Positions 6,822-36,070 of a stretch of 64,000 nt of DNA are shown piece by piece. Origin of the DNA: a virus (lineage: Duplodnaviria > Heunggongvirae > Uroviricota > Caudoviricetes); IMG/VR virus record IMGVR_UViG_3300009784_000001, positions 278,418-342,417 of that record; one strand, given 5' to 3'. Position numbers and translations under genes: made by a program. The notes below the pieces were generated by a model. That model did no database searches, was not told where the DNA came from, and saw only the letters and a list, made by a program, of their open reading frames with translations. Position 1 is the first letter of the stretch; every line of letters starts with the position of its first letter.

Positions 6822-6847
6822 AAGAATAAAGTATTAATTTTTAACAA

Positions 6848-21420: not shown

Positions 21421-21543
21421 TTATTTTTGTCTAATAATTACACGTCTGTTTCCACTTCTATTTACAAAAGGTCTTTGAATTGGTTTTTGTATTTGTGAAG
21501 TAGTTCTTTGTTGAACTTGTGGTTTGGATTTACAATTACACAT
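21421..21543 (-). CDS. small basic protein MCNCKSK (40 aa)
   Basis: Manual translation MCNCKSKPQVQQRTTSQIQKPIQRPFVNRSGNRRVIIRQK. Confidence 0.55.
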   Translation of the reverse strand: MCNCKSKPQVQQRTTSQIQKPIQRPFVNRSGNRRVIIRQK

Positions 21544-21602
21544 ACTTTCTACTATTTATTGAAATAAATATTGATTAATTATATTTTTTTAACATTTTAT
21601 AC

Positions 21603-21633
21603 TTTGAAATTAAAAAATAAATTTATATCTTTG
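21603..21633 (+). promoter_or_regulatory. Bacteroidota-type promoter of first tRNA cluster
   Basis: TTTG...TATCTTTG. Confidence 0.75.
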
Positions 21634-21742
21634 CAGTGTAATTCAAATGAATTAGTGTTGAAGTGATAACTGAGTAAGAACATGATACTTCAAATAAATG
21701 TAGTGAGAGATGTACAGCTTTATTCATTTTTTTAGATAAGGT

Positions 21743-21864
21743 TCCCCTGTAGCTCAGTTGGTTAGAGTACTTAAAATGAAGTTTTCTGGGTAGGAAATGT
21801 TCAGCAATATCAATCAAAATCGCTGTTAACGAAGGGGTCGGCAGTTCGAGTCTGTCCAGGGGTT
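21743..21864 (+). tRNA. tRNA-Asn(GTT)-like with 48-nt insertion in anticodon stem
   Basis: Normal D and T arms; removing 21773-21820 gives CTTCG-CTGTTAA-CGAAG. Confidence 0.75.
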
Positions 21865-21911
21865 CAAAGATTTCTTATTTAGATTAAAATAAGTGGCAGA
21901 GAAGAGGATTA

Positions 21912-21968
21912 AGAAAACATACAGCATTTTTTATCAATTCAACCATAGGAAAGAAAAAGTGTTTTCTG
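21912..21968 (+). ncRNA. CAGCA-stem RNA, copy C
   Basis: AGAAAACA-TACAGCA...TGTTTTCT-G. Confidence 0.6.
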
Positions 21969-22194
21969 AAATAAAAAGATAGGGTTCACTGAGTTAAAGT
22001 GAATAGTTCAATACCAAGGTGAGGGAAGTGTTGAATGATAATATAAGTCCTTACATGTAATATAACTACATATCTAACATGTTTTATATATAGTCATGAA
22101 TGTTATAAAACCTCTGGAACATTTTTTTTTATTAGGGTAGTTTTCATTGGATTAGACCCTGACTTTATGGTAAGTTATATTTACCTTAATTTAT

Positions 22195-22270
22195 TGGAAC
22201 TTAGCTCAGCTTGATTTAGAGCATCTGTTTTACAAGCAGAGGGCCGTGGGTTTAAATCCCCCAGTTCCAA
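22195..22270 (+). tRNA. tRNA-Val(TAC)
   Basis: Cloverleaf, TCTGT-TTTACAA-GCAGA. Confidence 0.9.
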
Positions 22271-22279
22271 CAATTAAAT

Positions 22280-22351
22280 CGGGGGATAGAGCAGTGGTAG
22301 CTCACCAGGCTCATAACCTGGAGGTCGAAGGTTCGATCCCTTCTCCCCCAA
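22280..22351 (+). tRNA. tRNA-Met(CAT), initiator-like C1:A72
   Basis: CCAGG-CTCATAA-CCTGG. Confidence 0.9.
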
Positions 22352-22355
22352 CAAT

Positions 22356-22484
22356 AGGAAAGGTACAGCAAATTGAATTAAAATTCTATTTACAATTTTA
22401 CTATGAGGAAGAGAGCTTTCATCTAAAATAGGTGGAAAACAACTCTCAAAGAAATGAGTACTTCTCTAAAAACTCTCTTTCCTG
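22356..22484 (+). ncRNA. CAGCA-stem RNA, copy D (long interior)
   Basis: AGGAAAG-GTACAGCAA...CTTTCCT-G. Confidence 0.55.
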
Positions 22485-22492
22485 ATATCATA

Positions 22493-22620
22493 AAATAAAT
22501 CTTTACATCAAGGTGTACATAAATCTGTATAGTGGTACAAATGAGGGGCAAAGGAGAAGAATTTGCGTAGTCCGCTTGGAGTATCGGGTAGCTATGGTTG
22601 GGAAAGGTAAAGATTTATTT
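22493..22620 (+). ncRNA. candidate structured RNA closed by a 14-bp stem
   Basis: AAATAAATCTTTAC/GTAAAGATTTATTT enclosing GC-richer core. Confidence 0.4.
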
Positions 22621-22636
22621 TTAATTTTTATATAAT

Positions 22637-23071
22637 ATGTTATATTCAATATTATTAACATTAGGATTATTAATTTTAGCTCATTTTATTGGAGATTGGA
22701 GTAAATTTGTTCCATTTCATCAAAAAGTAGTTAATGCAAAAGTTAATAAAACCAATACATCTGGAAATTGGATATTTTTACATTCAAGTATTGTATCTCT
22801 GTATAAAATATTTGCAATTTTAATTTCATCTTGGATTATTCCAATAGGAAATATGCCAGGTTTTTTGAATACAATATGGTTTTATATTATTCTTGTAGTA
22901 ATATTTTTTGGAGAACTAATAACACATTTTGTATTTGATATTTCTAAATGGTTTCTAAATAATAAATATAATCTGAATCCATCAAAAGATATTTATTGGA
23001 CTGTTGTTGGTATTGACCAAATGCTACATTATTTAGTAATGTTAGGAATGTTATATTTATTATATTGTTAA
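22637..23071 (+). CDS. DUF3307-like membrane protein
   Basis: LAHFIGD..H..THFVFD..GIDQMLH. Confidence 0.75.
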   Translation: MLYSILLTLGLLILAHFIGDWSKFVPFHQKVVNAKVNKTNTSGNWIFLHSSIVSLYKIFAILISSWIIPIGNMPGFLNTIWFYIILVVIFFGELITHFVFDISKWFLNNKYNLNPSKDIYWTVVGIDQMLHYLVMLGMLYLLYC

Positions 23072-23079
23072 TTTTATAT

Positions 23080-23165
23080 GGCTATGTGGCGTAATTGGGA
23101 GCCGCAGGGGACTTAAAATCCCCTCTCCTGTAAAGGAGGTACAGGTTCAAGTCCTGTCATAGCTA
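23080..23165 (+). tRNA. tRNA-Leu(TAA)
   Basis: GGGGA-CTTAAAA-TCCCC, long variable arm. Confidence 0.92.
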
Positions 23166-23168
23166 CGA

Positions 23169-23289
23169 TGAGAATTAGCTCAGTTGGTAGAGCAAAGGTA
23201 TTATAAAAAGTTTCTTGAATAAGAAATGTTCAGCAATATTTAAAAATGGGAACTTTATGTCAGCAGTTCGAGCCTGCTATTCTCATCCA
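23169..23289 (+). tRNA. tRNA-like gene (TGG loop) with about 45-nt insertion in anticodon loop
   Basis: TGAGAAT/ATTCTCA-T-CCA, normal D/T arms, AAGGT/ACTTT stem. Confidence 0.7.
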
Positions 23290-23292
23290 CAT

Positions 23293-23366
23293 TTTCTGGT
23301 AGTTCAATTGAATAGAACCTTCGGCTTCTACCCGAAAAGTTGGGAGTTTGAATCTCCCCCAGAAAG
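23293..23366 (+). tRNA. tRNA-Arg(TCT)
   Basis: TTCGG-CTTCTAC-CCGAA. Confidence 0.88.
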
Positions 23367-23383
23367 CAAAATAAATAGAAAAA

Positions 23384-23614
23384 ATGAGTAGTTGTATTAA
23401 TAGATTAGATGATGAATTAGATGACCAGCAATGGAAAGAAATGGTATTAAAATGGAATGGTTTCAAATTTAAAGTAATTGATGAATTAAATGAAGTTAAA
23501 ATTAAGAATAAATATGATACCAAAGAAGTTGAAGAATGGAAATTTTTATTTAATAATAAATCCAAAATATTAGCGAATAGAGAATTGATTAACTTATTAA
23601 AAAATTGGGAATGA
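23384..23614 (+). CDS. hypothetical protein
   Basis: ORF track. Confidence 0.55.
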   Translation: MSSCINRLDDELDDQQWKEMVLKWNGFKFKVIDELNEVKIKNKYDTKEVEEWKFLFNNKSKILANRELINLLKNWE

Positions 23615-23823
23615 ATATAAAGGTAAAAGAATTAATAAGTAAATTACAATTATTTAATCCAGAAGCCGAAGTTGATATTCTATTTAATAATCAACCTTAT
23701 CCTTTGGAAATATATGGTTGGAATTGTGGTGGAGATAATAATTATTCTTCAACTGAATCTAAACAAAAAGCTATTTCAGTATCATTAGGTGGGATTGGGT
23801 TAAATGATAGTGAAAGAATGTAA
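23605..23823 (+). CDS. hypothetical protein
   Basis: ORF track. Confidence 0.55.
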   Translation: MGMNIKVKELISKLQLFNPEAEVDILFNNQPYPLEIYGWNCGGDNNYSSTESKQKAISVSLGGIGLNDSERM

Positions 23824-24159
23824 ATGAAAAGTAAATTTGAATGTAGAGATAAAGTATCATATAATACATTTGAAGAAGCAAATAAAGTATTATCAGTATG
23901 GGATAAAAAGAAAAATAATAGTGAACAATATGCTTATTCTTGTAAAGAATGTGGAAAGATACATATTACCAGTAGAAAGAAACATCTAAATAAAGTAAAA
24001 CCAATTAAATATAAGGAAATTGGATTTACAAATGAGGATAGAAAAAAATGGGGTGGTAGTCGTTCAGTTAAAGAGCAAAAAGAACTTGTAGAAGTATTGT
24101 ATAAAGGAAGAGAAAATAAAAGAGTTACTTTTGGAGATTTATTAAAAAAAGAATATTAA
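23824..24159 (+). CDS. hypothetical Zn-finger protein
   Basis: AYSCKECGKIHIT. Confidence 0.6.
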   Translation: MKSKFECRDKVSYNTFEEANKVLSVWDKKKNNSEQYAYSCKECGKIHITSRKKHLNKVKPIKYKEIGFTNEDRKKWGGSRSVKEQKELVEVLYKGRENKRVTFGDLLKKEY

Positions 24160-24179
24160 GTTTTTTTAATACAAAATAT

Positions 24180-24210
24180 TTTGGTAACTCAAAAATAATT
24201 CTTATCTTTG
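24180..24210 (+). promoter_or_regulatory. Bacteroidota-type promoter
   Basis: TTTG...TATCTTTG. Confidence 0.75.
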
Positions 24211-24231
24211 TAGTGTTATTTGAAATTATAA

Positions 24232-24419
24232 CGAGAGGTAGCTTAATGGCAGAGCGCAGTCGGAATGTAAAATTGCAATTTAATGTTCTTAAACAAGACT
24301 GAATGGTGTGCTGTGAAAGTTTGAAAAAAGTGAATACAAACTGAATGGGGTTGCAAACCTTGCAAGTTATGATGCTTGAAGTAGAATGAGTAATTGAGGT
24401 TCAATTCCCACCCTCTTGA
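24232..24419 (+). ncRNA. enlarged tRNA-like RNA (about 188 nt)
   Basis: CGAGAGG/CCTCTTG acceptor, D arm, CAGTC/GACTG stem, GGTTCAATTCC T loop. Confidence 0.65.
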
Positions 24420-24438
24420 CAAAAAAAATTAAATTGAT

Positions 24439-24705
24439 ATGAAAACATTAAGAGAAAGACAAATTGGTGAAAGATTTAAATATAGAAAAAATATAGTTGA
24501 AGTCAAATCTGTTATTTATAACAAATGTTTTTATTGTCAATTTAGAAATCAATCTAAATGGATTGTAATTCTAAATGGTTGTTATCAAGAAAAAAATATG
24601 TTTGATTCTTGTTCAAAGAAACATAATTGTTCAAGATATACCAGAAAGGATAAAAAAGATGTTTATTTCAAACTAGTCAAAAGACTTTATTTAGAAAGAA
24701 AATGA
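24439..24705 (+). CDS. hypothetical Cys-rich protein
   Basis: ORF track. Confidence 0.6.
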   Translation: MKTLRERQIGERFKYRKNIVEVKSVIYNKCFYCQFRNQSKWIVILNGCYQEKNMFDSCSKKHNCSRYTRKDKKDVYFKLVKRLYLERK

Positions 24706-25265
24706 TAGGTTCAAATAACACTGATAAGTTTAAGATATTCCAAATAAGATGGGCTGAAAAGTTGGGTTATAACGATAATCCATATTTAATAAGGTGGACA
24801 TTTATATTTTTTGGATATTCAATGAGAATACATCATTGGATTAAATCAGATGATAATAGATATTTTCATGATCATTCAAGTGATTTGTTAAGCATTGTAT
24901 TAAAAGGAAAATATACAAATGTTAAACCTCTTATGTGGAAGAAAAATTTACCTCCAACTCATTTATTTGAAGTTGAATTACCACCAGAATCTTCAATAAA
25001 GAGAAAGTTTATTTCAAATACTGTAGAGTATCCAGTTGAAGGTATTTTTAATTCTTGGAAAAATTTCTTCAATATGAAGAAATCAATATGGTTTTCAAAA
25101 GCAACTGAACAACATTACTTGAGTATTCCAAAAAAAGGTGCATGGACATTGTTATTTGAAGGAAAAGCATATCATAAGTGGGGATTTTATGTAAATCAAC
25201 ATAAATGGAGACCATTAAGATATTTCTCAAAGTTTGGTATAATACAAACAGAAAATTATCAATAA
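24702..25265 (+). CDS. cupin-like phage protein
   Basis: RIHHWIKSDD..FHDH..SIVLKGKY. Confidence 0.55.
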   Translation: MIGSNNTDKFKIFQIRWAEKLGYNDNPYLIRWTFIFFGYSMRIHHWIKSDDNRYFHDHSSDLLSIVLKGKYTNVKPLMWKKNLPPTHLFEVELPPESSIKRKFISNTVEYPVEGIFNSWKNFFNMKKSIWFSKATEQHYLSIPKKGAWTLLFEGKAYHKWGFYVNQHKWRPLRYFSKFGIIQTENYQ

Positions 25266-25281
25266 TTTTTAACATAAAAAA

Positions 25282-25313
25282 TTTGGTCATTAAAAATAAA
25301 ATTTGTATCTTTG
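25282..25313 (+). promoter_or_regulatory. Bacteroidota-type promoter
   Basis: TTTG...TATCTTTG. Confidence 0.75.
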
Positions 25314-25607
25314 CATTATAAATTATGTTTTATTGATAGATTCAGGTACTGAATATTGGCACTGTAAAATATAGTTTAGAGTAATAGGCAGTAAGTCATA
25401 TATCTATGAGTAGAGGGTAACGTTTGAAATTAGTATATACTCCTTTGAAAAAGTGCAATGACCTATTATTTTTTATTAAATATTGATAATTTTTTAAATA
25501 ATAGTATATTTATATTAAAAAACTTATAAATGGGTATTGAACCATAAATAAAAAGTAAAAACAAAAAAAGCAATGGGAACAGATGCTTAAAAAAAGAAAA
25601 AAAAGAA

Positions 25608-25739
25608 ATGAGAGAATTTAGTAAACATATTAATAATTTTGTTGAGGTTAGTTATAAACCCAATAGTAATTGTAATTCAAATGAAAAACCATTTGAAGAT
25701 GATAATAATTTGCTAAAAGGATTTTGTGTATATATGTAA
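25608..25739 (+). CDS. putative attenuator leader peptide 1 (Asn/Glu/Lys/Asp/Pro-rich, 43 aa)
   Basis: MREFSKHINNFVEVSYKPNSNCNSNEKPFEDDNNLLKGFCVYM. Confidence 0.7.
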   Translation: MREFSKHINNFVEVSYKPNSNCNSNEKPFEDDNNLLKGFCVYM

Positions 25740-25760
25740 CATTTACTCAAATATACGTTC

Positions 25761-25810
25761 CACAAACCCTGATAGCAAAATTAAAAAAGTTATCAGGGTT
25801 TTGTGTTTTT
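25761..25810 (+). terminator. attenuator terminator before tRNA operon 1
   Basis: CACAAACCCTGATAGC/GTTATCAGGGTTTTGTG + T run. Confidence 0.8.
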
Positions 25811-25817
25811 AATATAT

Positions 25818-25888
25818 GGCGCATTAGTTTAGTGGTAGAACAGGCGGTTTTCAGCCGAAGGAGAGGGTTTCGATTACCCTATGCGCTA
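25818..25888 (+). tRNA. tRNA-Glu(TTC), weak anticodon stem
   Basis: CGG-TTTTCAG-CCG. Confidence 0.75.
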
Positions 25889-25895
25889 CAAATAT

Positions 25896-25968
25896 GTACC
25901 TGTGGCAGAGTGGTTTATGCACTTGACTGTTAATCAAGACTACGAAGGTTCGATCCCTTCTGGGTACG
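25896..25968 (+). tRNA. tRNA-Asn(GTT)
   Basis: CTTGA-CTGTTAA-TCAAG. Confidence 0.9.
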
Positions 25969-25975
25969 CAAAAAT

Positions 25976-26049
25976 AGAGAGTATAGCATAATCTGGTAAG
26001 TGTGCCTTCCAAGTGGGAAGGAGATGTGGTTCAAATCCAATACTTTCTG
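25976..26049 (+). tRNA. atypical tRNA-like gene (loop CAAGTGG, nominal AGT)
   Basis: 8-bp acceptor, CCTTC/GAAGG stem, GGTTCAAATCC; lacks U33. Confidence 0.55.
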
Positions 26050-26056
26050 CAAAAAT

Positions 26057-26128
26057 AGTCTATTGGTCCAGCGGTTAGGATGCCAGATTGTCAATCTGGT
26101 GGCGAGGGTTCAACTCCCTTATAGACTG
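26057..26128 (+). tRNA. tRNA-Asp(GTC)
   Basis: CCAGA-TTGTCAA-TCTGG. Confidence 0.9.
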
Positions 26129-26134
26129 CTATTT

Positions 26135-26207
26135 CTGGGTGTAATTCAGTAGGAAGAATGCTTGGTTTGGGACCAAGATGTCGGGAGTTCGAGCCTCTCT
26201 ACTCAGA
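26135..26207 (+). tRNA. tRNA-Pro(TGG)
   Basis: CTTGG-TTTGGGA-CCAAG. Confidence 0.9.
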
Positions 26208-26214
26208 CAAAATT

Positions 26215-26290
26215 CGGATAGTAGGGAAGCTCGGTCGTTCCCGCCTGCCCTGGACGCAGGAGATCATAGGTTCAAATCCTGTTTATCCGA
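26215..26290 (+). tRNA. tRNA-Pro(TGG), C33 variant
   Basis: CCTGC-CCTGGAC-GCAGG; C1-G72, A73. Confidence 0.8.
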
Positions 26291-26427
26291 CTATAATTAA
26301 AAAAGTTAAAGGGACTTTGAAAAGAATTATAAGTGAAAATAATATGAGTAATAAATTAAAAATAAAACGAAAATGTAGCTGACCTCACAGTTAATATGGG
26401 CTGTGAGGTTGGGAATAAGGATATTAC

Positions 26428-26500
26428 TCCCTCATAGCTCAATGGTTTAGAGCTTCTGTCTTTTAAACAGAAGAACCAGGTCCGATTCCTGGTGGGGGAA
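26428..26500 (+). tRNA. tRNA-Lys(TTT)
   Basis: TCTGT-CTTTTAA-ACAGA. Confidence 0.9.
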
Positions 26501-26518
26501 CTATAAAAATAAAAAAAA

Positions 26519-26740
26519 ATGTTTTGGGATAACAAAAATAAATGTAAGAAGTATTGTATAGGTTGTAAATTTGCAAGTGAATTTAATAATAATTTTTATT
26601 GTGTTAATGAACTTGGTGAATATATTGTTGCAACAAAAAATCAAGTTTTAGTATCATTGGGATATACAGCTTTACATATATGTAGAGGTTTATTAATAAA
26701 GAAAAATTGCCCATTTTTTGAAAAAGATAGAAAATTATGA
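26519..26740 (+). CDS. hypothetical Cys-rich protein
   Basis: ORF track. Confidence 0.55.
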   Translation: MFWDNKNKCKKYCIGCKFASEFNNNFYCVNELGEYIVATKNQVLVSLGYTALHICRGLLIKKNCPFFEKDRKL

Positions 26741-26985
26741 AAGAAATTAGTATTAAAGATGTAATTGATAATAGTAAAAGAGCTAAATTAACTCATGCTA
26801 TTGCAGGGAGATTGTATTATAGGGTAGATGATATAGAAAGAAATACTACATATCAATTTTGTGTAGATATGAATGATAAAGAAGATGTTGGTTCAACTAC
26901 ATTTATTGTAGATGAAAAAGCTATTCTTTTAATGAGATATATTAGAAAATCAAAAGATTCTGGTGATTTAATTCAAATTAAATAG
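26737..26985 (+). CDS. hypothetical phage protein
   Basis: ORF track. Confidence 0.6.
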   Translation: MKEISIKDVIDNSKRAKLTHAIAGRLYYRVDDIERNTTYQFCVDMNDKEDVGSTTFIVDEKAILLMRYIRKSKDSGDLIQIK

Positions 26986-26989
26986 CATA

Positions 26990-27181
26990 ATGAGTTTTAT
27001 TTATGAAATAAAAAATTTAGAGAAAATAAAAGAAGAAGGTAGTATTTACATTCAATGCCCATGTTGCCAAGAAAGTTTTGATTATTATCTAGATAAATAT
27101 GAATTAGATATTTTGAATAAAGAAGAGGACATTTATTGTAAGTGTATAGAATGTGGTAATTCTTTCTATCTTTCTTTGTAG
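26990..27181 (+). CDS. small Zn-ribbon protein
   Basis: CPCC..CIECG. Confidence 0.6.
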   Translation: MSFIYEIKNLEKIKEEGSIYIQCPCCQESFDYYLDKYELDILNKEEDIYCKCIECGNSFYLSL

Positions 27182-27312
27182 ATTATCAAAAAGTGATAAA
27201 AATCATTTTATGTATTGTAAAAGATGAAAAGAATAAATTTGGTATATTCAATAATAATTTGTACTTTTGCGATATAATTATCTATTTATAGATACAACAA
27301 AAAAGTATAAAA

Positions 27313-27648
27313 ATGAAAAAAAGAATTATTATTTTATTATCATTATTTTTCATAATGAACATAAGTCAAGCAGCTATTTATAAAACAAAAAGTGAAAGTG
27401 ATGTAATTGAGAATAGTACAGGTTTATTTGGAGAAAAAAAAGTAGAGAAAATTGAAAATACAGAAGATAATTATGGTGGATTATTCAGAGCATCAGATCC
27501 AGGTGGAAGACCAGGGAATGGTGATGGAATTGGTCAGCAAGCACCATTAGGTGATGGATTAAAAATATTACTTATACTTTGTTTTTTCTTTCTTCTTTAT
27601 GAATTTTCTACAAACAAAAAAATTAACATAAAAAATTTGGATAATTAA
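27313..27648 (+). CDS. secreted protein with C-terminal sorting-like motif
   Basis: Signal peptide; QAPLGDGLKILL + TM + basic tail. Confidence 0.6.
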   Translation: MKKRIIILLSLFFIMNISQAAIYKTKSESDVIENSTGLFGEKKVEKIENTEDNYGGLFRASDPGGRPGNGDGIGQQAPLGDGLKILLILCFFFLLYEFSTNKKINIKNLDN

Positions 27649-27667
27649 AAAATAAATTGTAATTTTG
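27636..27667 (+). promoter_or_regulatory. Bacteroidota-type promoter
   Basis: TTTG...TAATTTTG. Confidence 0.65.
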
Positions 27668-27704
27668 TAGAGTAATAAGATATTTATAAGATATAAAAAT
27701 AGAT

Positions 27705-27782
27705 CGTGGTGTGGAGGAGTCTGGCTTTCCTCATCTGGCTCATAACCAGAATGTCACATGGGTTCAAATCCCATCACCGCAA
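27705..27782 (+). tRNA. tRNA-Met(CAT), initiator-like C1:A72
   Basis: TCTGG-CTCATAA-CCAGA. Confidence 0.88.
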
Positions 27783-27787
27783 CAAAT

Positions 27788-27841
27788 AGAAAACATACAG
27801 CATTTTTTCAATTTTCAATGGGAGAAAAAAAGTGTTTTCTG
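27788..27841 (+). ncRNA. CAGCA-stem RNA, copy E
   Basis: AGAAAACA-TACAGCA..TTTTC-AATGGGA-GAAAA..TGTTTTCT-G. Confidence 0.65.
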
Positions 27842-27850
27842 AAAAAAATA

Positions 27851-27932
27851 AGGAAAGATACAGCAATGTTAAATGGTTAAAAGAAAATTCTGTAAAAATT
27901 TTTTGAAAAGGTTCAAATCCTATTCTTTCCTG
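27851..27932 (+). ncRNA. CAGCA-stem RNA, copy F, tRNA-Tyr(GTA)-like
   Basis: AGGAAAG-ATACAGCAA, AAAATT-CTGTAAA-AATTTT, AGG-TTCAAAT-CCT, CTTTCCT-G. Confidence 0.7.
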
Positions 27933-27968
27933 TAAATTTGAAAAGTTAAATTAAAAAAAATAGAAAAA

Positions 27969-28079
27969 ATGAAACAAATTAGTAGTACATATTGTCTTGG
28001 AAGTTCATCAGCGATTAGTTTTGCTGGTACAACATCCTTTTGTACTTATCATTTTTATGATAATTTTGTTTCAAGTTAA
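27969..28079 (+). CDS. putative attenuator leader peptide 2 (Ser/Thr/Phe/Tyr/Cys/Ala-rich, 36 aa)
   Basis: MKQISSTYCLGSSSAISFAGTTSFCTYHFYDNFVSS. Confidence 0.8.
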   Translation: MKQISSTYCLGSSSAISFAGTTSFCTYHFYDNFVSS

Positions 28080-28108
28080 AAAAAGAATTACCTTAACCTG
28101 GCAAGGAT

Positions 28109-28153
28109 AAACCTGAAACAAATCTATAAAAAAGAAAAGTTTCAGGTTTTTTT
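28109..28153 (+). terminator. attenuator terminator before tRNA operon 2
   Basis: AAACCTGAAAC/GTTTCAGGTTT + T run. Confidence 0.8.
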
Positions 28154-28162
28154 AATTTATAT

Positions 28163-28247
28163 GGAAAGTAAACCTATAAGGTGTAGGAACCGCCTGCTAA
28201 GCGAGTTGTACAATTAAATGTATGTGAATCGTGTTCACTGCTCTCCG
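28163..28247 (+). tRNA. tRNA-Ser(GCT), non-canonical T arm
   Basis: CGC-CTGCTAA-GCG, long variable arm, G73. Confidence 0.75.
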
Positions 28248-28288
28248 CAAAAGTTCTTTGAAATTGTTGGTTAATTATAAATTATTAT

Positions 28289-28371
28289 GGATTAGTTGGG
28301 TAGTGGCAATCCCAAGACACTGTAACTGTCTCGCCTTCGGGCTTTCGCTGGTTCGAGTCCAGCCTAATCCA
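28289..28371 (+). tRNA. tRNA-Tyr(GTA)
   Basis: AGACA-CTGTAAC-TGTCT. Confidence 0.92.
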
Positions 28372-28412
28372 CATAAAAATATTTTTCTTAATAACTATAC
28401 TTTTTTAGTTCG

Positions 28413-29384
28413 ATGCGATATTTATATATAAATGTAAATATTATGATAAAGGAACGAGAAGAATTAATTATTAAAATAATAAAAGAGAGTAATAGTATTT
28501 CAGAGGTTTGTAAAAAGTTAAATATATCTGTTACTAATGGTAATTATATAACAATAAAAAAAATAATAAAAAACAATAATTTAGATATATCTCATTTTAA
28601 AAGAGTTTCACAAAATTCTAATAAAAAGCGATATACGTTACAAGAAATTATGGTTGAAAATTCATCATACACCAATGTAAATAAATTAAAGAAAAGATTA
28701 ATTAAAGAAGGGATTAAGGAAAATAAATGTGAAATATGTGGAATAAGTAAATGGAATGGAGAACAAATTTCTTTACAATTGCATCATAAAAATGGTATCA
28801 CAAGTGATAATAGAATAGAAAATTTACAAGTACTTTGTCCCAATTGTCATTCTCAAACACATAACTATGGTGGGAAAAATATAGATAATAAAATAAGAGA
28901 AGATAGATTTTGCAGAATATGTGAGAAAAAGTTAAACGATACACAAAAAAAGTATTGTTCAATCAATTGCTATAATAAAAGTATTGATGATAATATTCCA
29001 ACTAAAAACAAAATCTTATCTTATATAAAAAATTATACAACACTTGTAGAATTATGTAAAAAAGAAAAAATTGATAGAGGGACATTTAGAAATTGGTGTA
29101 ATAAAAGACAATGTATAGATGATGTAAATTTTTTGTTGAAAAAAAATTTTGAAATAAAAATTTTAAATATTGAAGTTAAGAATGATTTATATGAAAAAAG
29201 ATGTGAATTAATAAATAAATTTAAAAAATTTGGGTCATTCTTACAAGTAGGTAAATATTATGGAGTATCCGATAATATGATAAGAAAAAGATGTAAAAAA
29301 ATTGGTTTACCTGTTCATACAAAAGAAATGATAAAATTAATAAATTCGGAAGAATGTCAGAGTGCTTTATTGTACAACTCTTGA
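28413..29384 (+). CDS. HNH homing endonuclease with HTH repeats
   Basis: CEICG..LQLHHKNG..DNRIENLQVLCPNCH. Confidence 0.85.
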   Translation: MRYLYINVNIMIKEREELIIKIIKESNSISEVCKKLNISVTNGNYITIKKIIKNNNLDISHFKRVSQNSNKKRYTLQEIMVENSSYTNVNKLKKRLIKEGIKENKCEICGISKWNGEQISLQLHHKNGITSDNRIENLQVLCPNCHSQTHNYGGKNIDNKIREDRFCRICEKKLNDTQKKYCSINCYNKSIDDNIPTKNKILSYIKNYTTLVELCKKEKIDRGTFRNWCNKRQCIDDVNFLLKKNFEIKILNIEVKNDLYEKRCELINKFKKFGSFLQVGKYYGVSDNMIRKRCKKIGLPVHTKEMIKLINSEECQSALLYNS

Positions 29385-29432
29385 AAAGTTGTGAACTTTC
29401 GAGTTCCGTAGGTTGGAATCCTACTTCTTCCG
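29348..29432 (+). tRNA. tRNA-Ser(TGA)
   Basis: CAACT-CTTGAAA-AGTTG. Confidence 0.9.
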
Positions 29433-29443
29433 CAAGATAATAA

Positions 29444-29516
29444 GGGATAGTAACATAGAAGTTTATGTGCTGGTCTGAAAAACCAGAAATGCTTGAGGCG
29501 GTATCAGCCTATCCCA
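29444..29516 (+). tRNA. tRNA-Phe(GAA), non-canonical T loop
   Basis: CTGGT-CTGAAAA-ACCAG. Confidence 0.8.
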
Positions 29517-29526
29517 CAAATTAAAT

Positions 29527-29612
29527 GCTTCAATGGGGGAATTGCTAGACCCGCTTGATTTAGGCTCAAGTTTCTGGGAACAGAAGTGTAGGTTGGATTC
29601 CTACTTGAAGTA
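29527..29612 (+). tRNA. tRNA-Leu(TAG)
   Basis: CTTGA-TTTAGGC-TCAAG. Confidence 0.9.
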
Positions 29613-29618
29613 CAATAT

Positions 29619-29690
29619 GTTCAGTTGCCAGAGTGATAATGGGGTAGACTGCAAATCTATTTTTCGTTGGTTTGAATCCAACACTGAATT
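29619..29690 (+). tRNA. tRNA-Cys(GCA)
   Basis: GTAGA-CTGCAAA-TCTAT, U73. Confidence 0.9.
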
Positions 29691-29702
29691 CAAAAAATAA
29701 AT

Positions 29703-29773
29703 GCTGTGTTAGTATAAGAGTATTACATTGGCTTTGTAACCCAAAAATGGGGATGCGATTTCCTCACACAGCT
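29703..29773 (+). tRNA. tRNA-Thr(TGT)
   Basis: TTGGC-TTTGTAA-CCCAA. Confidence 0.82.
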
Positions 29774-29782
29774 CTAAATTAA

Positions 29783-29854
29783 GGGCTTATCATATAATAG
29801 CTATTATGCCACCCCTGCAAGGTGGTTATTGGAGTGCAATTCTCCATAGGTCCA
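29783..29854 (+). tRNA. tRNA-Ala(TGC)
   Basis: G3.U70; CCACC-CCTGCAA-GGTGG. Confidence 0.85.
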
Positions 29855-29883
29855 CTTATTTAGCATTTATTAACTTGAATAAT

Positions 29884-29914
29884 TTTGATATTAGATAATA
29901 TTTTCTTATCTTTG
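29884..29914 (+). promoter_or_regulatory. Bacteroidota-type promoter
   Basis: TTTG...TATCTTTG. Confidence 0.7.
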
Positions 29915-29933
29915 TATCATTAAAATAAATGGT

Positions 29934-30548
29934 ATGAAAAAGATAGAATTAGTTTATAATAATTTAGATATTAATAATTTACCAGGTGAAATATGGGTAG
30001 ATGCTTATGATTTTGATGGTTATTATGAAGTATCCAATATGGGGAGGATAAAAACTTGTGAAAGAGAAGTCAGTAATGGAGTTGGGACAAGAATAGTAAT
30101 TAGTAAAATTAGGAAACAGGTTTTAGGTAAAGATGATAGATTAACTTGTCCCTTTACTATAAATAATGAAAGTATATCTATAAATGTTTCAAGGTTAATC
30201 TTTCAATCTTTTAACCCCACTAAGATTTTAGATAATTTAGTGGTTTCACATAGAAATAGATGTAAATGTGATAATAGATTGAATAATTTAAAAGTGGAAA
30301 CATTACAAAACAATCATTTTGATAATGTTCATAAGTATAATTATGGCTTAAAAGAACATTTGTTAAAACTGAATAAAATTAAACATGAAAAATTTGTCAA
30401 TACAATAAAAAGCAAAGTTTGTAATAAATGTGGAATAGAAAAAGATATAATAGAATTTGTATATAAAAGAGAAGGAAAAAGAGATGAAAATAGAAATATA
30501 TGTAAAATGTGTAGAAATAAACGTGAAAGAAATAGAATTAAAAAATGA
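29934..30548 (+). CDS. NUMOD4-HNH endonuclease
   Basis: EIWVD..YEVSNMGRIK; VSHRNRCKCDNRLNNL. Confidence 0.8.
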   Translation: MKKIELVYNNLDINNLPGEIWVDAYDFDGYYEVSNMGRIKTCEREVSNGVGTRIVISKIRKQVLGKDDRLTCPFTINNESISINVSRLIFQSFNPTKILDNLVVSHRNRCKCDNRLNNLKVETLQNNHFDNVHKYNYGLKEHLLKLNKIKHEKFVNTIKSKVCNKCGIEKDIIEFVYKREGKRDENRNICKMCRNKRERNRIKK

Positions 30549-30967
30549 GTTATAAAGATTTTTTTCAAAAACCAGAGTTTGATTTGGATGAAGTAGAAGA
30601 AAAAAGAGTAAATGCTTTGAAACCAGATGAAAATGGTGATTTAATGGAAAATGGTGATTATATTTTTCAGGATAGAGCAATTCATAATCAACAAGGTAAT
30701 ACAATTCAGCGTTCTTTTACAACTGTAAAGGGAGTTAGAGTAATGGAAGATACTTACATACCCTGGTCATGCTTTCAACCAATGAGGATGACTTTTGTGG
30801 TAGATTTGACATTGCCTGATGATACATTACCAACAACTGAAACAAGTTGGATGCAAAATTGGTATGAGCCTGAAGGATTTGCTCATCCTGCATTTGTAAA
30901 TTTTGAAGATGTTGTTGAATTTATAATTAAATGGAGAAAAAGTAACCCTAAAGTGGTTAATAATTAA
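30545..30967 (+). CDS. hypothetical protein
   Basis: ORF track. Confidence 0.6.
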   Translation: MSYKDFFQKPEFDLDEVEEKRVNALKPDENGDLMENGDYIFQDRAIHNQQGNTIQRSFTTVKGVRVMEDTYIPWSCFQPMRMTFVVDLTLPDDTLPTTETSWMQNWYEPEGFAHPAFVNFEDVVEFIIKWRKSNPKVVNN

Positions 30968-30975
30968 ATAAAAAT

Positions 30976-31048
30976 GTTCAGTTCTTCTAATGGTTTAGGA
31001 AGCAAGACTGATATTCTTGTAATATAAGTTCGATTCTTATACTGAACA
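30976..31048 (+). tRNA. tRNA-Ile(GAT)
   Basis: CAAGA-CTGATAT-TCTTG. Confidence 0.88.
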
Positions 31049-31050
31049 CT

Positions 31051-31128
31051 GTGTGGGTAGCTAATATTGGTTAAGGCACTAGATTGTGGCTCTAGGTTTT
31101 TATGGGGGTTCGATTCCCCTCTCACACC
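31051..31128 (+). tRNA. tRNA-His(GTG)
   Basis: CTAGA-TTGTGGC-TCTAG, C73. Confidence 0.9.
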
Positions 31129-31142
31129 AAAAATAAGAAAGT

Positions 31143-31173
31143 TTTGTTATTTAAAAAATTATTCATATCTTTG
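31143..31173 (+). promoter_or_regulatory. Bacteroidota-type promoter
   Basis: TTTG...TATCTTTG. Confidence 0.7.
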
Positions 31174-31193
31174 TATTGTAAATTAAATAAGAT

Positions 31194-31700
31194 ATGAAAA
31201 AAATCAGAAAATTTGTATTTGAAACAAACAGTTCAAGTTCTCATTCTATTACATTAGGTGATTTAGATTCATTTAGAAAAGATAGATATGGATTAAAATC
31301 TTGTATAGATGAAAATAACAATCTTGTATTAAAAGGTGGTGAATTTGGTTGGTATTTAGAAGATGATGAGGGTGCTGAAACAAAAGTAAATTATGTTGCA
31401 GTAGCTTTAACTTATTATTATGAAGCTGCGAAAGACAATGAAGAAAATTATTATGGTTTTACATTAGATGAAATCAATAATATTATTGAATTATTTAAAG
31501 AAGTTTTGAGAGAAGAAACAGATGCAGAAGTTGTTTTCAATTTTAAAGTAGGTTGGGAAGATTCTTACATTGATCATCAATCTATTGATATGATTGCAGA
31601 TGAAATTAAAGGTAAAAATGATTCAGAATTGAAAGAATTTTTCTATAATTTCATTTTTAATGAAAATTCAATATTAATAATTGATAATGATAATCATTAA
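31194..31700 (+). CDS. acidic phage protein with FETNSSS motif
   Basis: MKKIRKFVFETNSSSSHS. Confidence 0.7.
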   Translation: MKKIRKFVFETNSSSSHSITLGDLDSFRKDRYGLKSCIDENNNLVLKGGEFGWYLEDDEGAETKVNYVAVALTYYYEAAKDNEENYYGFTLDEINNIIELFKEVLREETDAEVVFNFKVGWEDSYIDHQSIDMIADEIKGKNDSELKEFFYNFIFNENSILIIDNDNH

Positions 31701-31899
31701 TTATGAATGAAGATAGTGGAGTTAGTTGTGGATGTGGTTGTTTTTCTTTTAGTATAGGTTGGGGGACTATTATTGCTGTAATATTAAGTTGAATGAAATG
31801 GCATTCAATTGGATGGGTAATTATTCATGGGTTATTAGGATGGTTATATGTAATATATTATATTGCAAAATATGTGTTATTAAATTAAAAATATATAAT

Positions 31900-32340
31900 A
31901 TGAAAAAAATTAGAATTAGTGTTTTTGAAACGAATAGTTCCAGCACTCATAGTCTTACAATTGTATCAAAAGAAGATTTTGAGAAGTGGAAAAAAGGTGA
32001 ATTTATTTTTGACAGAAGTAATGATGAATTAGTTCCTGTTAAAGAGAAGCAATATACAGAAGAAGATTATTTAAATTATCTTAAAGATAAAGCCAAAAAA
32101 GTTGCAAATGGATATATTTTTAGAGATGTTTATTATAAAAATCTAGATGAAATATTATCATTAAATCTTATTTCTAATGATGAAATGAATGAATATTTAG
32201 AAGATGAAGGATATGATTATGATTTTCAAACTTATAAAGATTGGGAAAATGATGAATATCTTGAAACATTTCAATATTCACATACTACTCCAAGTGGAGA
32301 TGAAATTGTGGTTTTTGGTAGATATGGTTATGATGGATAA
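31900..32340 (+). CDS. second FETNSSS-motif protein
   Basis: MKKIRISVFETNSSSTHS; ATG 31900 chosen by homology to the paralog. Confidence 0.7.
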   Translation: MKKIRISVFETNSSSTHSLTIVSKEDFEKWKKGEFIFDRSNDELVPVKEKQYTEEDYLNYLKDKAKKVANGYIFRDVYYKNLDEILSLNLISNDEMNEYLEDEGYDYDFQTYKDWENDEYLETFQYSHTTPSGDEIVVFGRYGYDG

Positions 32341-32488
32341 TATATGATTTCGATAATACAACAAAAAAATATAATAAAAGAATTTATTGATTATCTACCT
32401 TTTTCTGTTCTAACAAATGAACATTCTAGGTATAAAAAGGAAATAAGTTTATATGATTATCTTGAAGAATATATTAAAAAATTAAGAG

Positions 32489-33430
32489 ATGGAGATATTG
32501 AAATCATACAAAAATGGTAATGTTGAAATTACATTATATGATAATGGAACGAGGGTAATGGAATATGATGAAACTAAACCATTATTATTTGATTATCCTA
32601 CATCTATGGATATTAAAATTACTAATTATTGTGAAGGCGGAAAGATAACCAAGAATGGTGATTTTAAATTGTGCCAATTTTGTCATGAGGAATCAAATAA
32701 AGATGGAAAACATGCTAATTTAATTGAATTAAGTAATATTTTATTTGATATTCCAGAAGGAGTTGAAATTGCACTAGGTGGAGGTAATCCATTATCACAT
32801 CCAAATTTAGTTGCTTTTTTATTAAGATGTAAAAAACAAGGTTTAATTCCTAATTTAACAGTTAATAAAAATCATCTTGTTTTTTATTATGATTTATTAA
32901 AAAATTTAATAGATAATAAATTAATTTATGGATTAGGCATATCAATTCCTACTTCTGTATGTGAATGGAATGAAAAAGAGTTATTTTTTGTAAATTATAA
33001 ACATTCAGTTGCTCATTTAATTATAGGATTGCATTCTACTAAAATAATAAATATTTTAAGAAAGATTGGTTTCAAAAAATTTTTATTATTGGGCTATAAA
33101 GAATTTGGAAGAGGTATAAAATATTATAATAGTCATTCTAATAAAATAAATGAAAATATTAAAGAATGGGAAAACAATATATTAAATATTCTAACTACTG
33201 CTAATGTAATTTCTTTTGATAATTTATCTATTAGTCAACTTAATTTACAATCTAAATTGCCTAAGAAATTGTGGGATAAATTTTATCAAGGAGATGATTT
33301 TAGTTCAACTTTGTATTTGGATGCTGTAACTAAACAGTTTGCTCCTACTTCAAGAAGCAATAAAAATGAAAGGGTAAATTGGAAAGATATAAGTTTATTA
33401 GATTATTTCAGAGATAATAGAAGAAAGTAA
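32489..33430 (+). CDS. radical SAM protein
   Basis: DIKITNYC-x13-CQFCHE, EIALGGGNP. Confidence 0.85.
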   Translation: MEILKSYKNGNVEITLYDNGTRVMEYDETKPLLFDYPTSMDIKITNYCEGGKITKNGDFKLCQFCHEESNKDGKHANLIELSNILFDIPEGVEIALGGGNPLSHPNLVAFLLRCKKQGLIPNLTVNKNHLVFYYDLLKNLIDNKLIYGLGISIPTSVCEWNEKELFFVNYKHSVAHLIIGLHSTKIINILRKIGFKKFLLLGYKEFGRGIKYYNSHSNKINENIKEWENNILNILTTANVISFDNLSISQLNLQSKLPKKLWDKFYQGDDFSSTLYLDAVTKQFAPTSRSNKNERVNWKDISLLDYFRDNRRK

Positions 33431-33457
33431 AAGTTAGATATTTATTATAAAAAAGTA

Positions 33458-34312
33458 ATGAAGAATTTAGATGAAATAAAGTTTTTATTTGAAAGAAAAG
33501 AAGAAGAGACTTTTCAAGAATATAGTGATAGAAAGGAAAAAGAACGAAGTGTATCAAGTAGTTGTAATCATAAGGGGGGGGGGATTCTTAATGAATCTGT
33601 TTCAAAAAAAAGTACTTCTGAAAGACCAAATTTTATTTCTGAAATAAAAGGTTCAACAACTAATACATGGTCTTTACATAGACTTGATGAGATGACTGTA
33701 CAAAGATTATTAGGAAAACATTCTAATAATGGTTATATAATTATATCAGCAAGTAGAGGAGTGGAAAATGAATGGAATGAACAACAGAAACAAGAACAAA
33801 GAAGATTGAATAATGAAAATTATCAAAAATTATTAGCTTCAATAAAAAATAGTGGCTTTTCTTTTATTCCTGTATATGGTGGATTTGTTGAAAATTTAGG
33901 AGAAGAAGATGAAAGACAGGTTTATGAAAAATCATTTATTGTTTTGAATTTTAATAGAAAAGGAAATGAAATGGATTTTAATGAACTTTATCAAAAAGGT
34001 TTAGAATGGACTGAAGAATTTGATCAAGATTCATTTTTATCAAAGGCTCCTGATTCAACACCAGAATATGTTGATAAAGGAGGAAATGTAACAATGAAGT
34101 TTGGTGGGGATATAAAAGTAAATGATTTAACTCAACAATATTTCACAGATTTCGTTAAGTCAAAACAATTAGGTCAAGAAACAAATACAAAGGGTGATTC
34201 AATGAGTAGAGAACACAGGATTACTTTTGAAGGAGTATTTATAAATCCTGAACCTGCTACTTTGAGTGAAAGAGTTGTAAGGGATTATTTAAATGAATTA
34301 TTTTTGAAATAA
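33458..34312 (+). CDS. putative SAM lyase (T3 SAMase-like)
   Basis: YIIISASR..GGFVE..EKSFIV..EFDQDSFL. Confidence 0.65.
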   Translation: MKNLDEIKFLFERKEEETFQEYSDRKEKERSVSSSCNHKGGGILNESVSKKSTSERPNFISEIKGSTTNTWSLHRLDEMTVQRLLGKHSNNGYIIISASRGVENEWNEQQKQEQRRLNNENYQKLLASIKNSGFSFIPVYGGFVENLGEEDERQVYEKSFIVLNFNRKGNEMDFNELYQKGLEWTEEFDQDSFLSKAPDSTPEYVDKGGNVTMKFGGDIKVNDLTQQYFTDFVKSKQLGQETNTKGDSMSREHRITFEGVFINPEPATLSERVVRDYLNELFLK

Positions 34313-34333
34313 TGTGATATTTATATAAATAAA

Positions 34334-34426
34334 ATGAAAAAAAATACAAACATATTATTAGTTGGGCAACAAGGTTGGCAACAATTTGGACAAGGCTGTG
34401 GCAATGTTCCTGATAATGGTATGTAA
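34334..34426 (+). CDS. putative attenuator leader peptide 3 (Gly/Gln/Trp-rich, 30 aa)
   Basis: MKKNTNILLVGQQGWQQFGQGCGNVPDNGM. Confidence 0.85.
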   Translation: MKKNTNILLVGQQGWQQFGQGCGNVPDNGM

Positions 34427-34460
34427 GTATATAAGGATAACCTTCGCAAATGGTGGCTCT

Positions 34461-34497
34461 GGCTTACATTACTATTAAAAGTATGTAAGCCTTTTTT
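34461..34497 (+). terminator. attenuator terminator before tRNA operon 3
   Basis: GGCTTACAT/ATGTAAGCC + TTTTTT. Confidence 0.85.
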
Positions 34498-34504
34498 AAT
34501 TTAT

Positions 34505-34576
34505 AGATTAGTGGTATAATGGTTATTACACATCGCTTTGAACGATGGAATTCCTGTTCAATTCAGGACTAATCTA
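34505..34576 (+). tRNA. tRNA-Gln(TTG)
   Basis: CATCG-CTTTGAA-CGATG. Confidence 0.88.
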
Positions 34577-34690
34577 CATCATATCAATGGCAATAGATAT
34601 GATAATAGAATAGAAAATTTACAAATACTTTGTCCTAATTGTCATTCTCAAACTGATAGTTATGCAGGAAAAAGTAGTAGAAAAAAATAA
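34574..34690 (+). pseudogene. HNH endonuclease remnant abutting tRNA-Gln
   Basis: LHHINGNRYDNRIENLQILCPNCHSQTDSYAGKSSRKK*. Confidence 0.8.
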
Positions 34691-34693
34691 AAT

Positions 34694-34765
34694 GCGTCAT
34701 TCGTATAGTGCTTATTATGCGACTCTTCCAAAGTCAGGACATCGGTTGGATTCCGATATGGCGCA
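34694..34765 (+). tRNA. tRNA-Gly(TCC)
   Basis: GACT-CTTCCAA-AGTC. Confidence 0.88.
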
Positions 34766-34775
34766 CAAAATATAT

Positions 34776-34846
34776 ACGTGTTTGGTGTAATGGTAGCATA
34801 ACTCCCTCCAAATGAGTTGGTTAGGGTTCGAGTCCTTAAATACGTG
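34776..34846 (+). tRNA. tRNA-Trp(CCA)
   Basis: ACTCC-CTCCAAA-TGAGT, G73. Confidence 0.88.
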
Positions 34847-34908
34847 CTTACTTTGAAATGTTAAATAATCTAAAATTTTTATATTATCTAATTTATTAAC
34901 ATTTTCTA

Positions 34909-34940
34909 TTTGTATAATAGAAAAAATTATCTTATCTTTG
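34909..34940 (+). promoter_or_regulatory. Bacteroidota-type promoter
   Basis: TTTG...TATCTTTG. Confidence 0.75.
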
Positions 34941-34975
34941 TTCCATAATTAATAACAATTTAAATTTTTAATAAT

Positions 34976-36070
34976 ATGGCACATAATTTAGAGAACAGAG
35001 AGGGAGAATACAGTTTTGTAAGTGCAGCTTCACAACCTGCTTGGCATAATCTTGGTAAAGTTTTTAATAAACCTAATTTGACAATTGAGGAAGCTATTAA
35101 TGAAGTAAGAGCTAATTATAATGTAAGAAAAGATTATCTGTTACGAATTACTAATGAAGATATTGAAAGAATTAAGAATGGTTTACCATTGAATGAAGTT
35201 TTTGATATGAAAGATATTATCAAAACTCACCAATGTACTGTTCGTGAAGATTTGAATAATGTTTTAGGAGTTGTTGGAAGTGGTTATGAAGTAGTTCAAA
35301 ATCTTCAAGGATTTGAATTTGTTCAGGATATTTTGAATGGAATTGAAGGAAATGTTGGGAATAATAAGCCTTATATTCAAACTGCTGGTGTATTAGGAAA
35401 TGGTGAAAGAATTTTTGTTAGTGCAAAATTTCAAAATCCTGTTAAAATTAAAGGAAGTGATGATATAATTGAAGATTACATTTTGTTTACCAATGCACAT
35501 GATGGCTCAGGTGCTGTAATTGCTACTTTTACTCCAACAAGAGTTGTTTGTAATAATACTTTGAATATGGCATTGTCAGGAGCTAAAAATAAAATTTATT
35601 TTAAGCATACAAAGAATGTTCATGGTAAATTGGATTTGAAAAATACAGATAATTTGAATATGGCTTTGAGTGTATTAAGAGGACATCAAGTATATATTGA
35701 AACTTTAACTTCACAGTTAGCAAAATTGGAAGATATTAAATTGAATGAAAATGATGTTAAAAGAATTGTTGCTGGTACATTTTTAGAGCCTGCTCAAGTA
35801 AAAGAATTTGTTCAAAATCAGTATAATCTTGATAAATTGGATATTTCTACAAAAAGTAAAAATAATATTGAAAATATGTTACATACAATAGATTGTGGTG
35901 TTGGGCAAACCATGTGGAGAGGGACTGGATTATGGGTTATTAATGGTTTCACTACTTATTATCAAAATAATAAAAGTTATAAGACTGAAGAAAAGAAATT
36001 TGATAGTATTATGGACGGTGATGCTTTCAAGAAAGTTCAAAGAGCATATGATTTAGTAAATGCTTATTGA
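34976..36070 (+). CDS. DUF932/DUF945-family phage protein
   Basis: MAHNL..PAWHNLG..YEVVQN..NAHDGSG..TPTRVVCNNTL. Confidence 0.85.
   Translation: MAHNLENREGEYSFVSAASQPAWHNLGKVFNKPNLTIEEAINEVRANYNVRKDYLLRITNEDIERIKNGLPLNEVFDMKDIIKTHQCTVREDLNNVLGVVGSGYEVVQNLQGFEFVQDILNGIEGNVGNNKPYIQTAGVLGNGERIFVSAKFQNPVKIKGSDDIIEDYILFTNAHDGSGAVIATFTPTRVVCNNTLNMALSGAKNKIYFKHTKNVHGKLDLKNTDNLNMALSVLRGHQVYIETLTSQLAKLEDIKLNENDVKRIVAGTFLEPAQVKEFVQNQYNLDKLDISTKSKNNIENMLHTIDCGVGQTMWRGTGLWVINGFTTYYQNNKSYKTEEKKFDSIMDGDAFKKVQRAYDLVNAY

Follow-up and report, generated by a model that had tools for sequence, protein, structure and literature searches.

Some attenuators of enterobacterial amino-acid operons are multivalent: the ilvGMEDA leader senses isoleucine, leucine and valine, and thrL senses threonine and isoleucine. 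T-boxes, which regulate aminoacyl-transfer RNA (tRNA) synthetase and amino-acid genes, bind uncharged tRNA directly and without translation. Why and when phages use tRNA genes is debated, with codon-usage compensation, escape from tRNA-cleaving defences and replacement of degraded host tRNAs all under discussion. Here we analysed a 64,000-nucleotide (nt) stretch of a Caudoviricetes virus (the window; positions 278,418 to 342,417 of record IMGVR_UViG_3300009784_000001), in which a 30-codon open reading frame (ORF) rich in Gly, Gln and Trp stands before a terminator-like hairpin and the genes for tRNA-Gln, tRNA-Gly and tRNA-Trp. We find that this unit is probably, at roughly 70%, a ribosome-mediated leader-peptide transcription attenuator regulating these three tRNAs of the phage: the sequence contains what such a device requires and the comparative data behave as the model predicts, in support of the original prediction.

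Like the ilvGMEDA and thrL leaders, the unit combines a short ORF biased to several amino acids with a U run and with antiterminator and terminator helices that exclude each other, an arrangement in which the position of the ribosome would decide the outcome. Unlike them, it is a phage element without sequence similarity to either, its regulated genes would be tRNAs and not biosynthetic enzymes, and the signal usefully corrected by readthrough would be tRNA shortage, not amino-acid shortage. With trpL, hisL, pheL and leuL it shares a leader hairpin, an antiterminator and a terminator, the stop codon at or in the antiterminator strand and the control codons just upstream; it differs from these in the three amino acids of its run, its one Trp codon, its tRNA output and its lack of a Shine-Dalgarno motif. 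A T-box likewise reads tRNA supply and acts by a choice between antiterminator and terminator, whereas the leader unit is predicted to act through translation and to have tRNA genes as its output. A scan of positions 21500-35000 of the window with Rfam covariance models (E <= 1) gave no match to Trp_leader, His_leader, Leu_leader, Thr_leader or other leader families and none to the T-box (RF00230); all matches were tRNA-related (RF00005 and two tRNA-like cis-regulatory families).

The predicted intrinsic terminator occupies 34461-34491 (window coordinates throughout; the unit, its tRNA genes and the tRNA island around them lie on the plus strand). Its stem of 9 + 3 base pairs (bp) with one bulge (-14.5 kcal/mol, z -4.2) is followed by a T6 run (34492-34497) that ends 7 nt before tRNA-Gln, leaving no room there for a promoter, so transcription of the tRNAs must pass the terminator. 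Two strands make up the hairpin: region 3 (34461-34477), the 5' arm plus loop bases, is common to terminator and antiterminator, and region 4 (34480-34491) is the 3' arm. The 9-mer GTATGTAAG spans the TAA stop codon of the leader at 34419-34427 and recurs in the 3' arm at 34481-34489, just as the original prediction had held when it described the leader end as a duplicate of that arm. Its further proposal, that the leader end can sequester the 5' arm (GGCTTACAT, 34461-34469), also proved right, and the pairing is longer than claimed: the antiterminator strand (region 2, 34414-34428), which overlaps the last four codons and contains the stop codon (34424-34426), pairs with 34462-34477 over 15 bp with one bulge.

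The antiterminator duplex (-15.1 kcal/mol) has an energy reached by 0.25% of 4000 random 51-nt windows from the same genome (P = 0.0025), and folding 34404-34478, small inner helices included, gives -15.9 kcal/mol. A third helix competes for the same strand. In minimum-free-energy folds of the full-length unit, region 1 (34344-34366, codons 4-11) pairs with 34409-34430 to form a leader hairpin that holds the antiterminator strand, and the region as a whole folds better than its shuffles (z -2.3). The three mutually alternative helices, 1:2, 2:3 and 3:4, are those of a classical attenuator. A variable spacer (34429-34460) separates leader from terminator.

The leader ORF (34334-34426) starts with ATG 21 nt past the stop codon of a gene for an S-adenosylmethionine (SAM)-lyase-like protein. 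Its start context is A/T-rich and carries no Shine-Dalgarno motif, like the long ORFs of this phage, 227 of 241 of which are without one and only 14 of which have it. The 30-amino-acid peptide was called independently as a gene on other contigs. At codons 11-23 (34364-34402), 11 of the 13 residues are Gly (five), Gln (five) or Trp (one), the other two being Phe (F18) and Cys (C22); the run thus has exactly the make-up that had been proposed for it. When all ATG-initiated ORFs of 15-60 codons in the six frames of the whole genome (n = 2393) were ranked by Gly, Gln and Trp per 13-codon window, the leader came first with 11, followed by a poly-Gln stretch with 9 and then by 7. Over its full length, 12 of 29 residues are Gly, Gln or Trp against 3.0 expected from a proteome in which the three make up 10.2% (P = 1.4e-5), and the amino-acid sets of the other tRNA blocks show no enrichment in it. 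A chance origin of this composition is unlikely, and the statement that the leader is unlike the proteome stands. It was also correct that all five Gln codons are CAA; as an argument this carries no information, because CAA accounts for 90% of the Gln codons in the genome.

Behind the leader, in the order that had been predicted, lie tRNA-Gln (TTG; 34505-34577; ARAGORN, Rfam 60.7 bits), tRNA-Gly (TCC; 34694-34765) and tRNA-Trp (CCA; 34776-34847; ARAGORN, Rfam 52.2 bits). The tRNA-Gly gene was missed by ARAGORN and found by Rfam alone (46.5 bits), and we read its anticodon from the sequence. This is the only Gln-Gly-Trp tRNA block. The control codons match these tRNAs at the level of amino acids; for Gly the match at codon level is partial.

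From this layout we infer translation of the ORF, stalling, termination and readthrough, together with a biological rationale, as follows. RNA polymerase arriving from upstream would transcribe the 30-codon leader, and a ribosome would translate it. If Gln, Gly and Trp codons are decoded fast, the ribosome would reach the stop codon and mask 34414-34428; the terminator would then form and transcription would stop 7 nt before tRNA-Gln. If charged tRNA-Gln, tRNA-Gly or tRNA-Trp is scarce, the ribosome would stall within codons 11-23, short of the antiterminator strand by 12 nt or more. Since the last control codon ends 12 nt upstream of region 2, as read from the sequence, a ribosome stalled there would leave region 2 free to pair with region 3, and the polymerase would read on into the three tRNA genes. 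A leader free of ribosomes would have its antiterminator strand held by the hairpin of 34344-34366 with 34409-34430, making termination the default. The circuit would thus be a demand sensor, supplying the tRNA set only when the decoding capacity of the cell runs short. Extra tRNA cannot cure amino-acid starvation, and the useful signal would therefore be a shortage of the tRNAs themselves, possibly caused by host shut-off, tRNA-targeting defences or a mismatch in codon usage.

Comparison with relatives shows which parts of the unit are kept. A syntenic metagenome contig of 5,977 bp (L002) carries a radical-SAM protein, a SAM-lyase-like protein 85% identical to that of the window, the 30-amino-acid gene, tRNAs and a DUF932 gene. 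Its leader likewise has 30 codons and is 90% identical in DNA to that of the window. Core codons 11-21 differ at two sites, both synonymous third positions, and all five amino-acid changes fall outside this core, the peptide after codon 21 varying freely. The spacer (34429-34460) is 47% identical. The terminator retains all 12 of its pairs, two by virtue of double, compensatory changes, and the antiterminator retains 14 of its 15 in an unchanged register, with A34415-U34476 replaced by G-C. Because position 34476 lies in the terminator loop, this last exchange is explained by the antiterminator alone. The outer helix of the leader hairpin is kept except for one broken pair (34360-34414) and one wobble; the register of its inner part is not conserved. 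Folded by itself, L002 yields the same three helices (z -4.9 against shuffles; antiterminator P = 0.0013), and its T9 run ends 4 nt before its tRNA-Gln.

The tRNA genes of L002 are only 68%, 55% and 50% identical to those of the window, with the Gln, Gly and Trp identities and their order kept. For Gly, a truncated copy of the TCC gene (L002:3270-3324) is followed by an intact tRNA-Gly(GCC) at L002:3325-3397. The low identities and the truncated gene imply that tRNA genes are turning over behind a conserved leader.

A second, shorter variant comes from a 224-nt contig of low depth (X3/X4) that stems from two further termite-gut runs of other studies and covers 34330-34505. Over 34330-34433 no difference is listed for it; three that lie close to the end of the contig are not itemised. 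Of the 13 listed substitutions, 12 fall in the spacer at 34434-34460, as do all three indels; the remaining one, T34473C, turns an antiterminator G-U pair into G-C. The end of the adjoining gene differs at 21 of 151 positions.

The same layout occurs twice more in the window. One sister leader ORF (25608-25739) precedes the tRNAs for Glu, Asn, Thr, Asp, Pro, Pro and Lys, and the other (27969-28079) those for Tyr, Ser, Phe, Leu, Cys, Thr and Ala. The latter is enriched in exactly its own tRNA set (25 of 35 residues, P = 1.5e-5), and the former comes within the first nine ORFs when these are ranked by 13-codon window. Both ends are complementary to the 5' arms of their terminators (P = 0.0085 for 27969-28079 and P = 0.002 for 25608-25739), and 7-8 nt separate the end of each T run from the tRNA or tRNA-like gene that follows.

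A related phage shows leader and tRNA content changing together. Record IMGVR_UViG_3300002834_000024 (G001; 274,786 bp; 60% DUF932 identity to the phage of the window) has homologues of the two sister leaders and no third unit for Gly, Gln and Trp. Its Gly, Gln and Arg tRNAs sit in the Glu/Asn/Thr/Pro/Asp/Lys block, and the leader of that block (L239:2844-2978) has four codons each for Gly and Gln, where the window counterpart has one Gly codon and no Gln codon. Its Trp, Val, Ile and His tRNAs sit in the Ser/Tyr/Phe/Leu/Cys/Ala block, whose leader (L239:6465-6575) contains a Trp codon that the window counterpart lacks. Both G001 leaders pair with their own terminators (P = 0.002 and 0.025); in the first unit the terminator lies about 50 nt from the tRNA, against a few nt in the units of the window. 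A separate Gly/Gln/Trp unit exists only in the lineage of the window and in L002, its tRNAs and codons being spread over the other two units in G001. Such a joint shift of leader codons and tRNA genes between units is predicted by the attenuator model and by none of its rivals. The ORF, its composition, the three helices with their geometry, their conservation, the compensatory changes and the leader-tRNA co-variation are all directly in hand.

Several points weigh against this interpretation. It presupposes coupling of transcription to translation and a functional terminator, neither of which can be assumed. By standard reading, a TCC anticodon decodes only two of the six Gly codons of the leader (GGG, GGT, GGA, GGC, GGC and GGT) and not the four that are GGT or GGC, and the leader has just one Trp codon. 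Its relatives amount to one syntenic contig and one short variant, so the covariation rests on few events. The sister ORF at 25608-25739 is not significantly enriched over the proteome in the amino acids of its block (P = 0.19). We identified no convincing promoter for the unit: a candidate Bacteroidota-type -7 box, TATTTTTG (34299-34306), fits TAnnTTTG, is situated 28 nt ahead of the leader ATG and is kept in L002, a similar box, TAAATTTG (27925-27932), precedes the second leader by 37 nt, and there is also a TTGAA...TATTTATA motif; neither the box nor this motif is significant or consistently placed, and such boxes are frequent by chance in AT-rich DNA. Finally, a crude leader scan found no matched leaders before the tRNAs of the more distant giant phages G003 and G005 (36-38% DUF932 identity to the phage of the window), and the tRNA array of the crAss-like phage cr111_1 has no matched leader either. 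From these three phages it follows that the design is restricted to a lineage and is not a by-product of tRNA arrays.

Homology searches reached few further relatives. A degenerate pattern of the core peptide had no match in viral_contigs and, among the matches listed for metagenome_contigs, only chance ones in unrelated, GC-richer DNA; an exact look-up of the 30-amino-acid peptide led to no contigs but the phage's own. In 'phages', the only matches were to the HNH remnant described below, tRNAs and the DUF932 gene. For the upstream protein we found one syntenic relative only; in L003 and L004 no tRNAs adjoin its gene, and DUF932 homologues at 59-63% identity have no tRNAs alongside.

Among the other explanations, the one that survives best is still an improbable one: a plain operon-end terminator behind a gene for a conserved small protein, with the hairpin ending the mRNA of the radical-SAM protein, the SAM-lyase-like protein and the small ORF, and with the tRNAs made by constitutive leaky readthrough and RNase P processing. 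Conservation of the ORF and its calling as a gene on independent contigs would fit this, as would the 21-nt distance of the leader from the upstream gene, the lack of a clear promoter of its own and the fact that partly read-through terminators are common. Yet the C-terminal third of the peptide is free to change while the Gly, Gln and Trp codons are fixed, and the stop codon falls in a stretch that is complementary to the terminator arm over 15 bp and shows a compensatory change. An operon end also sits poorly with a layout found three times in one genome (antiterminator P 0.002-0.009) and with a leader composition that follows tRNA content in G001.

Slightly less probable still is an RNA element that works independently of translation, whether a processing or stability hairpin serving the pre-tRNA or the upstream mRNA or a switch operated by a protein or by direct, T-box-like tRNA binding, with the ORF incidental. 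The better-than-shuffled folds of both the window (z -2.3) and L002 (z -4.9) suit such an element, and the X3/X4 variant, with no listed leader difference, would suit it as well. But no T-box, leader or cis-regulatory leader family was matched in the Rfam scan, both core substitutions are third-position changes synonymous in the leader frame, and the inner leader hairpin is not conserved in register. Nor does an RNA element of this kind give a reason for the match between codons and tRNAs or for its shift in G001.

We consider it very improbable that the ORF arose by chance in a short degenerate DNA repeat (two 12-nt copies, 34360-34383) beside a plain terminator. The core does overlap this direct repeat, and low-complexity DNA can yield odd peptides; against this, the ORF ranks first of 2393 and directly precedes the only Gln-Gly-Trp tRNA block, two further variants preserve it beside a scrambled spacer, and it has two sister units in the same island. 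The weakest reading, a precursor of a radical-SAM-modified, ribosomally synthesized and post-translationally modified peptide (RiPP), draws on the radical-SAM protein encoded two genes upstream (32489-33430) and was rejected, as that protein matched no SPASM or RiPP-maturase family, a SAM-lyase-like gene separates enzyme and peptide, putative core residues after codon 21 are not conserved, and both the terminator pairing and the tRNA match would be left unexplained.

Extending the attenuator interpretation to all three units, we tentatively propose that three independent sensors (Glu/Asn/Asp/Pro/Lys/Thr, Ser/Tyr/Phe/Leu/Cys/Thr/Ala and Gly/Gln/Trp) share out much of the genetic code, each switching on its own tRNA block only when the infected cell fails to decode that codon set; this broader scheme is rather less likely than its single Gly/Gln/Trp component. 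Such a failure could come from host tRNA-cleaving defence nucleases, from host shut-off or from the poor match of a 26% GC phage to its host. Together the sensors may form a demand-driven tRNA supply and counter-defence circuit, and they may be rewritten when tRNA genes change blocks.

The virus record is a single contig of 359,943 bp with 26% GC; the sequence of this giant phage is found in termite-gut metagenomes, no RNA run being listed among those that contain it, and some of its genes are similar to those of crAss-like phages. The tRNA island extends over 21.7-34.9 kb of the window and holds about 27 tRNA genes with HNH homing-endonuclease genes in between. One of these is a remnant, a 50-codon ORF (34538-34690) with Pfam HNH_3 and HNH matches that sits behind tRNA-Gln, overlapping its 3' part, and ahead of tRNA-Gly. 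At the DNA level, HNH genes from unrelated phages of Rhodococcus, Streptomyces, Enterococcus and Erwinia match it at 70-87% identity; L002 lacks it, and it does not belong to the switch. The island also contains full-length HNH and NUMOD4 homing-endonuclease genes at 28413-29384 and 29934-30548, the first of them overlapping the start of tRNA-Ser(TGA).

Some tRNA-like sequences of the island escaped ARAGORN. Two tRNA-like genes, at 21743-21864 and 23169-23285, have inserts of about 45 nt; they score 36 and 35 bits with the Rfam tRNA model and were not called by ARAGORN. Directly after the terminator of the second unit lies a tRNA-Ser(GCT)-like sequence (28162-28250) with acceptor-like ends and a CTGCTAA anticodon loop, which was called neither by ARAGORN nor by Rfam at E <= 1; a homologue stands at the same place in G001 (L239 about 6750-6835). 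On the reverse strand, G003 (L241) and G005 (L244) each have one tRNA with anticodon CTA, an amber suppressor labelled 'Pyl' by ARAGORN, which suggests TAG recoding in these two phages; the phage of the window has no CTA-anticodon tRNA.

Among the protein genes of the window, the radical-SAM gene has a weak Pfam Radical_SAM match and a match to PHROG 16999 ('Fe-S oxidoreductase'). The SAM-lyase-like gene (33458-34312), homologues of which carry PF23780, is accompanied by a complete SAM synthetase gene (54459-55628). Further genes encode Hsp70 (57389-59335) and NAPRTase (52608-53834).

Set beside described attenuators, the unit has their structural parts, namely a short ORF, matching control codons, a predicted terminator and an exclusive antiterminator, and departs from them in what lies behind the terminator, which is three tRNA genes and not genes for amino-acid biosynthesis, transport or a synthetase. 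This predicted use of tRNA genes as the output of an attenuator is the new point. A full-text literature search, whose coverage leaves out most subscription journals, turned up no account of tRNA genes controlled by leader-peptide attenuation, whether phage or cellular. A supposed precedent, a leader-peptide attenuator ahead of the Escherichia coli tRNA-Phe gene pheV, turned out to be wrong: in MG1655, the 105 nt that separate yqgA from pheV contain neither such an ORF nor such a terminator.

If the attenuator interpretation is true, some phages would gauge decoding capacity per codon set and express tRNAs on demand, and classical attenuation of amino-acid operons would be extended to the translation machinery itself. 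The unit would then be a testable cis element of about 165 nt, and a leader composition equal to the downstream tRNA set would serve as a signature for annotating tRNA islands. It would also offer a natural readout of the host tRNAs that become limiting during infection.

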